A stretch of DNA of 41,693 nucleotides. Origin: an uncultured Nitrososphaeraceae archaeon (lineage in GTDB: Archaea; Thermoproteota; Nitrososphaeria; Nitrososphaerales; Nitrososphaeraceae). Shown piece by piece: positions 24,351 to 39,252 of this stretch. The translations under genes were made by a program, and so were the position numbers. Position 1 is the stretch's first letter. The number at the start of each line of letters is the position of its first letter. The DNA is taken from positions 1 through 41,693 of the forward strand of contig CAVXZB010000010.1 of the NCBI GenBank assembly GCA_963765895.1, read 5' to 3'. Under the pieces are notes generated by a model. The model ran no database searches. It was not told the DNA's origin and worked only from the letters and a program-made list of their open reading frames with translations.

Positions 24351-25160
24351 CTAGTGAAGACCAAGCACTTGTTTGCGAGATAACGATATAGCTGCTATTA
24401 TTATACCTGCAACTCCTGCACCAATGCCCACCATCGCAATCATATATGAACGATCTACAGAGCTTTTAATATCCGAAATTGATTTCTGGATATTTCCCAT
24501 ATTCTTAGCCAATGATTGGATATCAGCTTTAGATGACTCTACATCGTTTGACATACCACTAATTATTGTCTGCAATTTTGGCCCCATATTGTTGCTCGTC
24601 GATTGTGTACCTGAAGTAATCACATTAGAGGTCGATGCATCTGGAAATGAGATCTTTTGTGTGGCTTCTACGATATCTAGTGGAATTTCTACGTTTGATA
24701 TCTTCTCTCCTTGAATGGTGCCATTCATAATAAGACTATACGAACCAACCCTAGTAGGCACTGTTTTAGATTCGTATTGACCCTCAGCCTGTTCAGAGGG
24801 GATAAAATCGACTGATTTTGTAATACTGCCGTATTTCTCCTTTACATCTAGATCAGCAAGTGCGTCTATTACAGGTGATTCCTGTCCGCCGGCAGAAGTT
24901 TTATTGACAGCGACAATAATGTTATTAACTTGTGCAGTTAGTGGTGGCTCGTCAAACCAGCCAACTTCGACTTTGATGTTTCCAATCTGTTTCGTTATAT
25001 GGGCATATACCGGTAGAATCAGCATGTTAGAAACATAACGCGCACCAAAAGCAGATATTATTAGAATACTGATAAGAAATGTAAGTAGACAAATACCAAA
25101 TTTGTTTAAAATGTCATAAATAATTATGAACACAAACTTCACCATCATTTTATAATTCAA
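24351..25160 (-). CDS. Exported, C-terminally membrane-anchored protein (Ig-like/YtkA-like domain plus coiled coil), predicted mature N-terminal His
   Basis: Signal ending VYA|HITKQ, VEVGW..EPP, G.Y....PTRVGSY, heptad region and C-terminal TM followed by RK. The true start may lie downstream of 25160. Confidence 0.8.
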   Translation of the reverse strand: MNYKMMVKFVFIIIYDILNKFGICLLTFLISILIISAFGARYVSNMLILPVYAHITKQIGNIKVEVGWFDEPPLTAQVNNIIVAVNKTSAGGQESPVIDALADLDVKEKYGSITKSVDFIPSEQAEGQYESKTVPTRVGSYSLIMNGTIQGEKISNVEIPLDIVEATQKISFPDASTSNVITSGTQSTSNNMGPKLQTIISGMSNDVESSKADIQSLAKNMGNIQKSISDIKSSVDRSYMIAMVGIGAGVAGIIIAAISLSRKQVLGLH

Positions 25161-25309
25161 ACGAAATATAAATATTCATGCTCACCTACTTCGAAATATC
25201 TTTAGATGTCACTACTACAATTAGATCAAATTAATAATTATATAAATCTATGAAATAACAACTCGACAAGTTATTATATTATTAGGTTGTATGTGATACT
25301 GTTTTATCG

Positions 25310-25852
25310 ATGCAAGCAGTTTATATTGTAGATGATGCAAAAATTGCAAGTGTCCTAATTGATCCCATGCGAAGAGCAATCTTGAATCTACTAAGACAGA
25401 AGCCCATGACTCAAGCTCAGCTAGCCAATGAGCTGGGTTTGTCTGGTGCCTCGCTTAATCATCATATGAAGATATTGAGGTCAAAGAAATTAGTTCTGGT
25501 AGTCAAAAGGGAGATTGAAAGACATAGGATTATGCAAATATTCTTCTCGAGTGTAGCATATCTGTTTGTGTACGATCTTAATTCATTACCTAAAAACATT
25601 TCCCGGTATTTTTACCCGGTGAGCTTGGAAAGAGCGAGAGTCCTTATTGCTGTACTGATGTTAAAGGAGAGGTCATTTAAAATTGATCAGAATCCAGAAA
25701 TTACCAATAACTTGGCTGAGCGGTTATCTGAGTTAATTGTAAAGACGGCAAGAAGATATGAACGTAAGAGTATTGAATCCTCATATGAAAGAATAGCTTT
25801 TGAAATATATGCGAAGTCAGTCAGCGAACTATTGCTTACAAATATCCATTAA
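25310..25852 (+). CDS. ArsR-family winged helix-turn-helix transcriptional regulator
   Basis: L.DPMRRAILNLL..KPMT..QLA.ELGLS.ASL.HH.K.L. Divergent from 24351..25160. Confidence 0.9.
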   Translation: MQAVYIVDDAKIASVLIDPMRRAILNLLRQKPMTQAQLANELGLSGASLNHHMKILRSKKLVLVVKREIERHRIMQIFFSSVAYLFVYDLNSLPKNISRYFYPVSLERARVLIAVLMLKERSFKIDQNPEITNNLAERLSELIVKTARRYERKSIESSYERIAFEIYAKSVSELLLTNIH

Positions 25853-25999
25853 TTGGAATTGTACACATTGGGGATCTACTGACCAAATTTAGCCTTCTAT
25901 GATACAGAGACAAGGTAGGAGGTAATAGTCGAGCCAACAAAATTTTATCCTATCTCACTTTACAGTTCGTTAATTCAGAACTGACTGTCAAACCTTGTA

Positions 26000-36486: not shown

Positions 36487-36588
36487 TGCAACAATATCTA
36501 CAATAGTTTAAAGAATCGAAAAAACTTAGGCTGTATTATTCTATAGTTATTATGGATTCGATACATCGAACCGTTACATTTATCTAAT

Positions 36589-38217
36589 ATGCTATCATTA
36601 ATATTATTGATTCGTATGATGCAGCAATCAGATCTTGATTATATAGTTAGAATCAATGGGGTCTTGCCAGACATAAGTACAATAGGAGACGAGCAGGAAT
36701 CAGAACGCGCAGCAGAAGTGAAAGAGTATGGTATTAGTGCAAACACTTCGTGTTCATTGTTCTTAATGAAAAAGAAAGCATCAAAAAGTCCTTTGCCAAC
36801 TGGATCTATGCAAAATTATGGAAGTCAAGCAGAATCTGAAAATCAGTTGACTTTTCATCTACTTGTTGATATTGGTAATGGAGTTTTGGACAGTTTGCAG
36901 TCTATCAGGAATATATCGGATCTCACTTCTGCCAATGCTTACATTAGGACACCAGTTGCTAATTCTAGAAGCTCAGGAATGATGGGAATTACAAAAGACG
37001 CGTCAGATATATCTCAGGATGCGTTCTATCTACCAAATGCTCTTCTCATAACCCATGCACATGATGATCATATACAGGATTTACCATTACTATTGGAAAA
37101 TATAAGGCGATTATCCAACGATGCTACCTTTGAAATATTTTGTACAGCACAATGTCGGGATCAGATTCTTGCCAAATTCCCGGCCATTACTGAAATGGCT
37201 GATGCTAGCAATGTAAATTCTAAAATATCTTGTAAGGTTATAGAACCAAACAAGGCCTTTGAGGTAGGTTCACTGTCAATTATACCGATAGAAGCTTATC
37301 ATGGCGAAAACTCGGCAGGTTCAGTAATTTATGTCGTCAGACTGCCTGACAACAAGAAGATAGTCATTGGTTGGGACCTTCTATCCTTAAAATCTGTAGA
37401 TGAGAGTTTATTATGGAATCCTGATCTATTGATTTTAGGGACCCAGAGTTTTAATCAGCATCCTGAAACTGGGTTAATATCTGTTACAGAATCGTTTAAT
37501 ATAGTTAGAGAGTGGAATGCTAAACAATGTTACTTAGTTCATTACAGGGGTTTATCAGATTTTGAAAATGCAAAAAATCAATGGTTTAGAGGGCCTGCCA
37601 AACCTATGACGTCAGACGAATTGCAAAAAACAATAGATTCATACCTTAAGATTACGGGAAATGATGGTAAATTCAAAATTACTGTAGCAAGAGAGGGAAT
37701 GCTCTGGACTGATAAGGATAATATCCGAATGTCAATGTCAATACCAAATACAACTGGACAAGAAAAATCAAATCCTGGCAAGAGCCAAACTGAACAGTCA
37801 TCATCTAATAGTCCAGAAGAATCTAACAATATGCTGGAACTAGAAGCATTACAAAAGTATGTCATGAGAATTGAAAAAGATCACAAAGAGGATAAAATGA
37901 AACTCACCATTGAGGATAAGATCAATAGATACGATCTAAGATTTGTTCGACCACATAAAGAAATTACAAATGGTAACGCAAGTGCTAGTAGCCAAGAGAA
38001 TTATATACTTACAGCTGAAGGTGAAAAAGGGATGCTTGCAAAAGGTCCAGAGTTACACATGGAGACTTCAGCTAAATTAAATGACTCAGAAGACCTAGAA
38101 GCCTTTGTTGCAAGGGTTAGAGCGTACAAGGGAAAGAAAAATGTATTCAATGATGAAATAATACTTAACAAGATAGATGGGATGAAACTAAATAGGTTCG
38201 TTAAAGAAAACTTTTAG
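36589..38217 (+). CDS. MBL-fold metallo-hydrolase (PhnP/RNase Z-like) with an extra C-terminal domain; likely start at 36616
   Basis: LLVDIGNG, LLITHAHDDH (HxHxDH), EAYHG, IGWD and YLVHY. Confidence 0.88.
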   Translation: MLSLILLIRMMQQSDLDYIVRINGVLPDISTIGDEQESERAAEVKEYGISANTSCSLFLMKKKASKSPLPTGSMQNYGSQAESENQLTFHLLVDIGNGVLDSLQSIRNISDLTSANAYIRTPVANSRSSGMMGITKDASDISQDAFYLPNALLITHAHDDHIQDLPLLLENIRRLSNDATFEIFCTAQCRDQILAKFPAITEMADASNVNSKISCKVIEPNKAFEVGSLSIIPIEAYHGENSAGSVIYVVRLPDNKKIVIGWDLLSLKSVDESLLWNPDLLILGTQSFNQHPETGLISVTESFNIVREWNAKQCYLVHYRGLSDFENAKNQWFRGPAKPMTSDELQKTIDSYLKITGNDGKFKITVAREGMLWTDKDNIRMSMSIPNTTGQEKSNPGKSQTEQSSSNSPEESNNMLELEALQKYVMRIEKDHKEDKMKLTIEDKINRYDLRFVRPHKEITNGNASASSQENYILTAEGEKGMLAKGPELHMETSAKLNDSEDLEAFVARVRAYKGKKNVFNDEIILNKIDGMKLNRFVKENF

Positions 38218-38231
38218 AGTAGGATATTAGT

Positions 38232-39252
38232 ATGAGGGCCAACCATCATTTATTTGAAATCTTGGTTATCAGCACAATGTCTATACTTATGACTTTGATG
38301 ATGATAGCGGCATCTCCCTCTATATACGGACACACTTTTTCCCAGAATGAAAATTCATTGTTTCTTACTCGAGTAGCTCAAGCGCATTCTCAGTTAAATC
38401 TAATTGAGAATCTGGTTTTAAATGGCACTAGTAATATAATATAATAATAATAATAATATAATATAATAATAATAATATAATAATAATAATAATAATAATA
38501 ATAATAATAATAATAATAATAATAATAATAATAGTGATGCCAAATCAGTTCAAGCCCATGTGATGCAGGCAATAGCACTATTAAACGAAAAAGATCCCAT
38601 AAACAATTTTACATGGAGTCAAGAAATTGCAGAAAAAAATCAACGAGTTGCAAAGGATCTTACTAGGGAATTAAATGATTTGAAGATTTCCTTAAGCCAA
38701 GATACACTTACAACGGCCATTAATAATAAACCTTCGCTATCCAATAACAGCTCTGTCATTAAGGACAAAATAGATACACTTGGTGGACTACTAGATGAGG
38801 CTATATCTGCAAGAGTAAACAAAGACGCTGTAAATAATTCTACAAATCAGGCGCTTGTGCTGGCTAATATTGGAAATGAAATATTTTATAGCTACGGTCA
38901 GGCACTTGGATTTCCATATCCAAAGTTGGCTAACATGGTCGCAACTATGAAATTGAATGTCAATAGCAACAACAAGATACCCGCCATGGCTAATAAAATG
39001 AATATAGCTAATGAATCACAATATCAGAATGCAAAGGCATATGTCAAGCAAGCTCAAGAAATTGTTTCAAAGTATCTTAAGTCGCCAGCCTCTAATAATA
39101 AAAATGCAGCTCCAGATATACAATCGCAGCTTAACAAGATCCTTTCGCAATTAAAAATGACTATAGATAATAAAGGTTCGTTCAGGACCGTGATGCATCT
39201 TATTCATATGCAGCTACATCCGAGATTGATAGGTAACTATAAGATAAATTAG
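38232..39252 (+). pseudogene. Exported helical protein with predicted mature N-terminal His, split by an out-of-frame AAT tract (ORFs 38232..38444 and 38560..39252)
   Basis: Signal IYG|HTFSQNENSLFL. After the tract SDAKSVQAHVMQA continues in the frame of 38560. The C-terminus is VMHLIHMQLHP. Confidence 0.8.
38433..38532 (+). repeat. 100-bp (AAT)n microsatellite: 30 AAT units plus 5 AT units
   Basis: Direct parse; 100 is not a multiple of 3. Confidence 0.95.

Follow-up and report, generated by a model that had tools for sequence, protein, structure and literature searches.

A putative second copper-acquisition gene cluster in an ammonia-oxidising archaeon, partly damaged and with exported proteins predicted to start with histidine

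The energy metabolism of ammonia-oxidising archaea (AOA) depends on copper enzymes, and yet these archaea do well where free copper is very low. To our knowledge, copper limitation in a soil strain of AOA has been followed in one transcriptome study only. The closest described systems are known from Bacillus subtilis and Nitrososphaera viennensis. In B. subtilis, YcnI binds Cu(II) via its N-terminal His, a Glu, and a Trp, requires its membrane helix, and exchanges Cu(II) with YcnJ at the N-terminal-His site in the CopC domain of the latter; both proteins sustain growth at scarce copper (PMC12154828, PMC13344008). In N. viennensis, a copC/D cluster is already known to be induced by copper limitation (PMC7785015). 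Here, a related locus of an uncultured Nitrososphaeraceae archaeon was compared with these systems. The window, i.e., the whole stretch of 41,693 nucleotides that was analysed, is a complete contig (C10) of a genome assembly of 4.9 Mb in 88 contigs, which is 88% complete, and the named relatives of its proteins belong to Nitrososphaeraceae. The proteins in question are two exported proteins, p1 and p3, which are encoded on the two sides of a CopC-CopD (CopCD) coding region. An earlier note on this DNA had proposed that exported proteins with His at mature position 1 capture copper at the cell surface and feed CopD.

The region was read as a second, partly damaged copy of the copper-acquisition cluster of AOA, in which p1 and p3 would be copper binders and p1 would exchange copper with CopC. 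This reading is given a probability of roughly 0.55. The anatomy of the locus, the conservation of its proteins, their gene linkage, and the identity of their homologues with published genes induced by copper limitation are matters of observation. In the proposed mechanism, p1 would be a beta-sandwich outside the cytoplasm, anchored in the membrane through its C-terminal helix, with His as the first residue after cleavage. The amino group and imidazole of this His1 would bind Cu(II) together with the invariant Glu18 and Trp15, and p1 would exchange copper with the N-terminal-His site of the CopC domain, as YcnI does with YcnJ. The p3 protein would be exported and all-helical, an abundant copper binder that scavenges or stores the metal in the cell envelope and is produced when it is scarce. 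In our judgement, the main idea of the earlier note holds for p1 and plausibly for p3, and it is weak for the His-rich PEF-CTERM protein encoded in the same region.

The gene families of the window were recognized in the copC/D cluster of N. viennensis, i.e., p1 as NVIE_014340, p3 as NVIE_014250, and the His-rich protein as NVIE_014240. CopC/D with NHL, ArsR-type regulators, and PEF-CTERM proteins are also shared. In genome G152 (locus L088), a 621-amino-acid (aa) protein of the His-rich family, a 301-aa p3 homologue, and small YtkA-like proteins are clustered, and the locus continues with ArsR, a pair of CopC/D genes that enclose a distant p1 relative of 251 aa, a p1 homologue of 230 aa, and PEF-CTERM proteins. 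By exact look-up, the 230-aa and 301-aa open reading frames (ORFs) of this locus are, letter for letter, UniRef100 entries A0A060HK50 and A0A060HK41 of N. viennensis. The window p1 shows 34% identity to NVIE_014340 (E 1e-42), and p3 shows 25% identity to NVIE_014250 over its full length (E 2e-21). Under copper limitation, both homologues, which are labelled as exported proteins of unknown function, rise and have the promoter motif, with log2 fold changes of +1.44 for NVIE_014340 and +2.64 for NVIE_014250 (PMC7785015); a look at such transcriptomes had been suggested as a check, and it came out in favour of both proteins. In the same study, CopC/D_a (+2.68), NVIE_1457 (+2.80), and ArsR (+2.47) rise as well, the 621-aa protein is unchanged, and the summed proteome intensity is 1.7e10 for NVIE_014250 vs 4.1e7 for CopC/D_a (PMC7785015).

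The part of that report on which we draw says nothing on an N-terminal His or a YcnI-like role in this cluster (PMC7785015). In the open-access literature, the locus tags and accessions of NVIE_014340 and NVIE_014250 were found only in PMC7785015 and PMC12448741, and the term histidine brace was absent among the matches listed when it was tied to archaea, copper, and Nitrososphaera. New here are the recognition of a His1 signature, the likeness of p1 to YcnI, the extent of the p1 family, which reaches into bacteria and is coupled to CopCD at the operon level, and the connection of p3 with a protein that is among the most abundant under copper limitation.

The p1 ORF reads ...LILPVYA/HITKQ, where the slash marks the predicted signal-peptide end, just as had been noticed from the letters. 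The cleavage site was taken from the AxA pattern and the start position of the profile. The conservation of the first residue, in p1 as in the neighbouring CopC domains and the p3 relatives, is more than chance. In 24/24 and 51/51 sequences, the residue that comes straight after a signal-peptide end of small-x-small type (AYA, ASA, AYG) is His, position 54 of the window ORF, and among genome loci that cover the position, His follows the signal peptide in 73 of 74, the exception (L075) being a locus whose best match starts at that residue. A domain-only alignment of 40 diverse members has H1, G14, W15, E18, P19, N26, G58, G74, P82, G86, and G94 as invariant residues (His1 40/40). His1 is also kept in 30/30 when the window p1 domain is aligned with 29 remote relatives of 24-33% identity. 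The signal peptide of bacterial members ends in a textbook AxA motif right before His1. Across the family, the alignments show a hydrophobic helix followed by basic residues at the C-terminus, and among the remote members all whose C-terminus is present have it.

In the AlphaFold model of p1, residues 1-111 form a beta-sandwich, with a block-mean predicted local distance difference test score (pLDDT) of 71-87 over residues 1-110. Beyond residue 111 come a low-confidence linker, a long helix, and a membrane segment. The top fold match among 48,161 PDB representative chains was Helicobacter pylori CrdA (Z 10.8, root-mean-square deviation 2.1 A, 97/108 residues; the comparison as a whole gives Z 10.8-11.0), which has the same general beta-sandwich shape and is described as a CopC/PcoC-like copper protein without any His (PMC9182242). 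Further matches were DUF4426 (Z 9.2), P19/FtrA/HftA (8.5-8.6), Tp34 (8.2), PmoD (7.4), and CopC (7.2 and 6.5), and filamin-type immunoglobulin (Ig) domains appeared at similar Z. The shape of p1 therefore fits a periplasmic copper protein, without proof of function. N-terminal His is common to p1 and CopC; p1 differs from CopC in lacking the second conserved His, from CrdA in lacking the Met-rich loop, and it has its own membrane anchor. Against the sequences of solved structures, nothing was found below E 0.09. A P19/FtrA-type iron-copper protein was also considered for p1 and dropped: the fold similarity to P19/FtrA/HftA/Tp34 (Z 8.2-9.2 over about 106 residues) is near the background of the aligner, these proteins are about 40 residues longer, and no sequence relation was found.

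Like YcnI, p1 has a signal peptide followed by His, a small extracytoplasmic beta-sandwich, a C-terminal membrane helix, and a conserved Glu and Trp, its gene adjoins a CopC-CopD fusion, and a role under copper limitation is indicated (PMC12154828). Unlike YcnI, it has no DUF1775 match, and its Trp and Glu stand 14 and 17 residues past His1 instead of far along the domain. Thus, p1 has the architecture and gene context of YcnI and is yet outside the YcnI family. It is on this match in every architectural and contextual element, on unrelated sequence, that p1 is held to be a Cu(II)-binding partner of CopC-CopD, an analogy that we consider slightly better than an even bet. A complex prediction of the p1 domain with the CopC domain of the neighbour of its twin on contig C84 gave no answer (score 0.00, without controls) and weighs neither way.

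The p1 family is large. By word-index search, 201 relatives were found, all without a Pfam domain. By profile search of 1.84 billion representatives, 1,330 clusters at 50% identity were obtained at E<=0.001, of which 592 also pass E<=1e-10; the matches mostly start with the first position of the profile, which falls about 20-50 residues from the start of the protein. A Pfam scan of 36 remote members left 27 without a family at E<=0.01, and among the remaining small members none reached a curated Pfam cut-off. Two of the remote relatives have sub-threshold matches to the YtkA-like domain (PF13115; 24.2 and 17.0 bits vs a cut-off of 25.9), the former being the best of these scores. Neither Pfam nor NCBIfam has the family as a model. 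Among 301 genomes of the order, two of which (G260 and G271) are unpublished, p1 was found in 140, i.e., in 56/73 and 71/73 genomes of the two large families f1 and f13, in 8/11 of f9, and in 0/74 of f10, and CopD in 197. The profile search and the metagenome loci place p1 in bacteria as well, so the earlier description of the system as archaeal was too narrow.

Linkage of p1 to CopCD was recorded in two samples, i.e., 80 archaeal loci from species genomes and 80 bacterial-like loci from metagenome contigs. CopCD is in the flank of 62/80 archaeal loci. It mostly lies upstream on the opposite strand, in 57 loci within 400 bp and in 60 within 3 kb, and twice on the same strand; where more than 1 kb of upstream sequence exists, CopCD is present in 60/69. 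The CopC domain beside archaeal p1 starts with His in all 60 cases that are readable. In bacterial-like loci, a CopCD-like ORF directly follows p1 on the same strand in 67/80. Ten of the other 13 have <200 bp of downstream sequence, and three (L130, L136, and L151) have room and are without it. CopC and CopD scored above cut-offs in 12/12 of the downstream ORFs sampled. One Solirubrobacterales genome has the order p1-like gene, CopCD, multicopper oxidase, and no DUF1775 was found in it. Synteny with CopCD, which had been asked of homologues, was found in archaea and in bacteria. As a large, unrecognised family that stands beside a copper-uptake gene in both, p1 is likely to handle copper on behalf of that gene.

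The second family, p3, had been described as a single exported protein with IYG/HTFSQ at its signal-peptide end and HLIHMQLHP near its C-terminus. Both motifs are present (...SPSIYG/HTFSQ and ...HLIHMQLHP...), on two ORFs and not on one. The 114 relatives of p3 carry no family name and no Pfam domain (Pfam scan on 38 members). In an alignment of 27 sequences, His after the signal peptide and Phe two residues on (F3) were each found in 26 of the 26 that have the N-terminus, H66 in 25/27, and N159, T161, and Y178 in 27/27. The model is all-helical, with a mean pLDDT of 77.6 and a predicted template modelling score of 0.78. A PDB sequence search gave nothing, and the ESM Atlas returned only unnamed Nitrososphaerota clusters. 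The family belongs to Nitrososphaeraceae and is almost restricted to one family of the order: among the 301 genomes, it was found in 67/73 of f1 and 6/73 of f13 and nowhere else. When p3-family ORFs are near p1, they often adjoin it on the same strand or lie between p1 and CopCD. Some members have Met- and His-rich loops.

As far as we know, the known histidine braces sit on beta-sandwich folds, unlike p3 with its predicted all-helical fold. Like the histidine-brace proteins LPMO, CopC, PmoB, and X325/Bim1, p3 has an invariant N-terminal His, a near-invariant second His, and an invariant Tyr (brace make-up as in PMC10952591). An abundant copper-binding envelope protein with a His1-His-Tyr site is a possible function, to which we allow a little less than an even chance. 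The two hypothetical proteins pointed out for their His1 are, in any case, real and conserved families, both linked to CopCD. As a side observation, the gene of a metallo-beta-lactamase (MBL)-fold protein is separated from the start of p3 by 14 bp, part of another copy of it is found just upstream of the broken CopCD, and in one p3 homologue (P0183) an MBL-type N-terminus is fused to p3.

Several observations weigh against the proposed reading. The p1 alignments have no second conserved His or Met, which therefore excludes the classical two-His brace, and Glu and Trp are suggested as ligands by analogy with YcnI. The models are metal-free. No Pfam match to DUF1775 (PF07987) was found for p1, for 24 relatives (E<=1), or for a bacterial member. 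By hhalign, the probability was 0.1% for p1 against a 14-sequence DUF1775 alignment, 0.2% against CopC, and 1.4% against YtkA-like domains; p1 is therefore not a member of these three families. The 50 best fold matches of p1 do not include YcnI, which does not show that the two folds differ. As for p3, its C-terminal HxxxH is present in only 17/27 sequences, a Foldseek search of the PDB gave nothing at E<=0.001, and a wide VIA search gave only generic four-helix bundles (Z<=12.8) and imelysin 3n8u (Z 10.9 over two bundles), all within the noise of helical models. A p3-family ORF lies <=10 kb from p1 in only 23/80 loci. The window p3 is itself interrupted, as a degenerate (AAT)n tract has stops in the entering frame, and the window CopC-CopD is not one ORF as assembled, only the downstream YtkA-like and NHL part being open.

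Regulation gives further points on the same side. The N. viennensis copper-limitation motif TTCSGSMTTTGWACYANT (PMC7785015) was not found in the cluster; the window as a whole has two matches with 3 mismatches (8327 and 14273) vs 1.79 expected. Intergenic regions, read by eye and by core words, had no shared motif. The window ArsR shares only the helix-turn-helix (HTH) with the copper-responsive ArsR of N. viennensis and is not its orthologue. According to PMC7785015, N. maritimus lowers its CopC/D fusion when copper is limiting; copper regulation is therefore not uniform among these archaea. The N. viennensis homologue of the His-rich protein lacks the conserved His residues and is not copper-regulated. 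In sum, the window differs from the N. viennensis cluster in its non-orthologous ArsR, in the promoter motif, and in being broken. As an observation apart, the 251-aa N. viennensis protein A0A060HQ44 (L088 9885-10640) is a distant p1 member (hhalign 96.6%) with His after the signal peptide and GSLNEP instead of GWxxEP. By position only, it is NVIE_1457, the gene with +2.80 under copper limitation (PMC7785015).

The His-rich protein was proposed as a copper binder as well, with HAH, HIH, and HEE motifs and a PEF-CTERM tail. The motifs and a tail of PEF-CTERM type are present on two ORFs, which in 98% identical relatives form one protein of 640-674 aa. When positions 26650-26697 take the form of the RNA-library contigs, one frame of 677 aa results. 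In the N-terminal ORF, seven His (H90, H117, H119, H172, H174, H262, and H311) are kept in 122/123 sequences (H174 in 113/123), which are mostly close relatives. The C-terminal ORF has VVVPEFPS followed by a hydrophobic and a basic stretch; relatives end with ...VVVPEFPSFTGSALLISGLFAFAIFFTRRFKSAYKI, and the window tail is longer and partly altered. No NCBIfam model matched this tail. Conservation among close relatives speaks for a copper role and the N. viennensis homologue against it, and the case is weak. The (AAT)n-type microsatellites (38427-38543 and about 26600-27060) encode poly-Asn linkers inside exported proteins. The linker length varies among relatives (297-326 aa for p3, 640-674 aa for the His-rich protein), and public contigs replace or skip the microsatellite stretches.

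Homology to CopC-CopD runs from 32463 to 30804 and passes through the frames -3, -1, -3, -2, -3, and -1. CopC (PF04234) was matched on ORF 32004-32318 with 30.9 bits (cut-off 23.3) and CopD (PF05425) on ORF 30901-31521 with 34.4 bits (cut-off 32.1). The CopC signal-peptide end had been given correctly, as ORF 32302-32526(-) reads ...HKSYG/HAVLIYSD. In relatives, the YtkA-NHL part is the C-terminal half of one CopC-CopD-YtkA-NHL protein, e.g., a 988-aa fused ORF in L088. Since the window CopCD is broken by frame changes as assembled, this locus alone cannot feed CopD, contrary to what was proposed for it.

Public contigs were aligned to 24000-39400, i.e., from two DNA runs and two RNA libraries of four studies, about 96% identical to the window. 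Single-base indels relative to the window were found in 4/4 runs at 30948, 31511, 31846, 31894, 32042, and 32046, in 3/4 at 32351, where run X2 has no cover, and in the RNA runs also at 32355. With all eight applied, frames of 936 and 229 aa result; with 31894 left out (7/8), one frame of 1145 aa is open. These are the eight listed indels, and 59 further ones exist in the comparison. The public-contig forms open both CopCD (1145 aa) and the His-rich gene (677 aa), so intact forms of both exist in nature. The (AAT)n tract of p3 was skipped as a repeat; both the relatives of 297-326 aa and the copy on contig C36 have it in frame, as a poly-Asn linker. Five close relatives have the primary CopCD only, with 63-72% DNA identity to that of the window in most pieces (82% in one 49-bp piece). 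An assembly error is kept in play because the 622-aa frame downstream of the breaks is open and the breaks of p3 and the His-rich gene lie in repeats. Contigs of the RNA libraries cover p1, the His-rich gene, NHL-CopCD, and MBL-p3, with depth 0 at 33.2-34.3 and 35.3-36.3 kb and next to nothing between; the DNA run X1 covers 33.2-35.3 kb. Over all four runs, the highest contig depths are those of RNA-library contigs over MBL-p3.

Other copies were found in the same genome. The p1 gene alone (24353-25128) is 99.7% identical to C84:292710-293485. Outside p1, the twin loci either have nothing in common or differ much more strongly, with about 65-67% DNA identity between their CopCD copies, and the pair looks like the product of gene conversion or a very recent copy. 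On C84, p1 is divergent beside an unbroken CopC-CopD ORF of 571 aa, and a YtkA-NHL ORF follows in an overlapping frame. An ORF about 5.7 kb from this intact pair is presumably amoC. The two overlapping frames (L003 9673-11388 and 11321-12916) are one ORF in L088 and in ORFs of about 920-990 aa elsewhere; a 95% identical relative (L008) is split like C84. A second cluster on C84 (366000-380000, L004) has two p3 paralogues, both with A/H at the signal-peptide end, a His-rich paralogue, two small YtkA-like membrane proteins, and an HTH protein. A zinc-finger membrane protein with a HIHAH...HTH motif was also seen there, and the cluster adjoins an ATP-binding cassette permease. Positions 26135-27987 are 93.8% identical to another stretch of C84. 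Furthermore, 36559-41693 dovetails with the end of contig C87 at 96.8%, and 1170-6840 matches the whole contig C31 at 98.4%; these are either strain variants that were assembled twice or repeats that broke the assembly.

Layout of the copper-related region of the window (positions of the window; slash, predicted signal-peptide end)
Feature	Position	Strand	Description
p1	24351-25160	-	269-aa ORF; exported beta-sandwich with C-terminal membrane anchor (predicted); mature N-terminus His54 of ORF; GWxxEP motif
ArsR/SmtB-type HTH regulator	25310-25852	+	Divergent from p1; Pfam HTH_20 and HTH_5
His-rich surface protein, C-terminal piece	26000-26575	-	191-aa ORF; Ig-like domain and PEF-CTERM-type tail
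His-rich surface protein, N-terminal piece	26581-28065	-	494-aa ORF; conserved His; mature start AYA/DGLTQE, not His
Weak PsbP-like protein	28421-29005	-	Pfam PsbP_2, E 4.2e-5, 24.1 bits, below cut-off 27
YtkA-like and NHL/Vgb-type beta-propeller protein	29100-30968	-	Open, 622 aa; Pfam matches; 59% identity to C84 paralogue
CopC-CopD coding region	30901-32526	-	Four pieces matching CopD and CopC; at least five frame changes as assembled; CopC mature start SYG/HAV
Relic, N-terminal part of second MBL-fold gene	32560-33110	-	tblastn with 542-aa MBL protein; indels vs public contigs at 32779 and 32960
DUF4396 relic, two pieces	35259-35622	-	Profile search
MBL-fold protein	36589-38217	+	Lactamase_B_2, E 2.1e-12; stops 14 bp before p3
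p3, N-terminal piece	38232-38444	+	Signal peptide, mature His1, first helix
Degenerate (AAT)n microsatellite	38427-38543	+	Poly-Asn linker in relatives; out of frame here
p3, C-terminal piece	38560-39252	+	Helical body; C-terminal HxxxHP motif

The ArsR regulator noticed earlier is an ArsR-type HTH protein, with HTH_5 at 37 bits (cut-off 22) and HTH_20 also above its cut-off; the NCBIfam model HTH_metalloreg scored 41.4 bits, below its cut-off of 55. Of the gene relics that had been suggested, the DUF4396 relic is real, with matches at 35259-35429 (E 6.8e-13, profile positions 104-141 of 141) and 35488-35622 (E 0.008). Six-frame searches of the window at E<=1 gave no relic of YHS (PF04945) or Csp/DUF326 (PF03860), and the YHS protein of the genome itself, as a tblastn query, gave at best E 0.41, at 36303-36380. 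The stretch 33252-36335 has short ORFs and relics only and almost no RNA-library contigs in X15 and X16. Elsewhere in the window, a response-regulator receiver fused to a thioredoxin-reductase-like flavoprotein (15518-17335) and, beside it, a cyclic-nucleotide-binding histidine kinase (17400-18941) were assigned by reading the translations alone.

Four other explanations were considered. The one that comes nearest holds that the window locus is a dead duplicate, with broken CopCD and p3, a split His-rich gene, and relics, while the working system is elsewhere in the genome; it is a strong contender, though we would not give it quite even odds. In its favour are the frame changes and stops, the genuine relics of DUF4396 and MBL genes, the gaps in the RNA contigs described above, and the unbroken CopC-CopD ORF with a twin p1 on C84. 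Yet all breaks are at 1-nt indels absent from the four public runs or inside microsatellites, and the breaks may therefore be assembly errors; p1, ArsR, the NHL part, and the MBL gene are open, and the 622-aa NHL frame is still open below the breaks. It is unlikely, in our estimate, that p1 and perhaps p3 are instead copper chaperones that load extracytoplasmic cuproenzymes (the CuA site of terminal oxidase, ammonia monooxygenase, plastocyanins) and do not serve import by CopD, in a role like that of CtaK/YtkA or PCuAC; their copper would come from CopC or the medium. The place of the intact p1-CopCD pair near the presumed amoC and the two sub-threshold YtkA matches of remote p1 relatives would suit chaperones. 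So would two reports from B. subtilis, i.e., that the YtkA-like domain, which CopCD proteins carry, overlaps functionally with CtaK in CuA assembly (PMC13344008), and that Cu(II) flows in vitro preferentially from the CopC domain of YcnJ to YcnI (PMC12154828). The hhalign probability of p1 against YtkA-like domains is only 1.4%, and the tight pairing of p1 with CopC-CopD fits import and enzyme loading alike.

Buffering or detoxification of surface copper, i.e., resistance as first proposed for CopC/CopD and CrdA, would agree with the top fold match, as CrdA is a copper resistance determinant, with the multicopper oxidase that follows CopCD in the bacterial locus L086, and with the resistance-protein names of CopC and CopD. 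We rate it as very unlikely, given that in N. viennensis it is a lack of copper, not an excess, that induces the homologues and CopC/D (PMC7785015) and that YcnJ and YcnI support growth under copper limitation (PMC12154828, PMC13344008). Similarly improbable is an envelope or adhesion role without metal for p1, p3, and the His-rich PEF-CTERM protein, in which the His would come from signal-peptidase preference and the CopCD linkage from shared regulation. The generic Ig/filamin-like fold of p1, with many filamin, macroglobulin, and invasin domains at Z 7-8, would permit it; the copCD region of N. viennensis is also induced in biofilms (PMC12448741), and NVIE_014250 is very abundant, as structural proteins are (PMC7785015). 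Signal-peptidase preference does not explain an invariant first residue together with Trp and Glu over about 1,330 clusters in two domains of life, and operon-level pairing in 67/80 bacterial-like loci argues for joint function with CopCD.

The copper-acquisition reading gives concrete, testable roles to exported proteins without a name, i.e., p1 as a YcnI-like Cu(II) partner of CopCD and p3 as an abundant helical binder with His1. Because the p1 family, with its CopCD coupling, is missing from Pfam and NCBIfam, copper-uptake loci are incompletely annotated in many genomes. In its widest and more tentative form, which we place clearly below an even chance, p1 would join CopC and YcnI/DUF1775 as a third class of Cu(II) proteins with N-terminal His and would obligatorily accompany CopC-CopD importers in AOA and many soil bacteria, and p3 would be the first histidine-brace-type site on an all-helical scaffold, a highly abundant envelope protein with which Nitrososphaeraceae collect scarce copper for ammonia monooxygenase.

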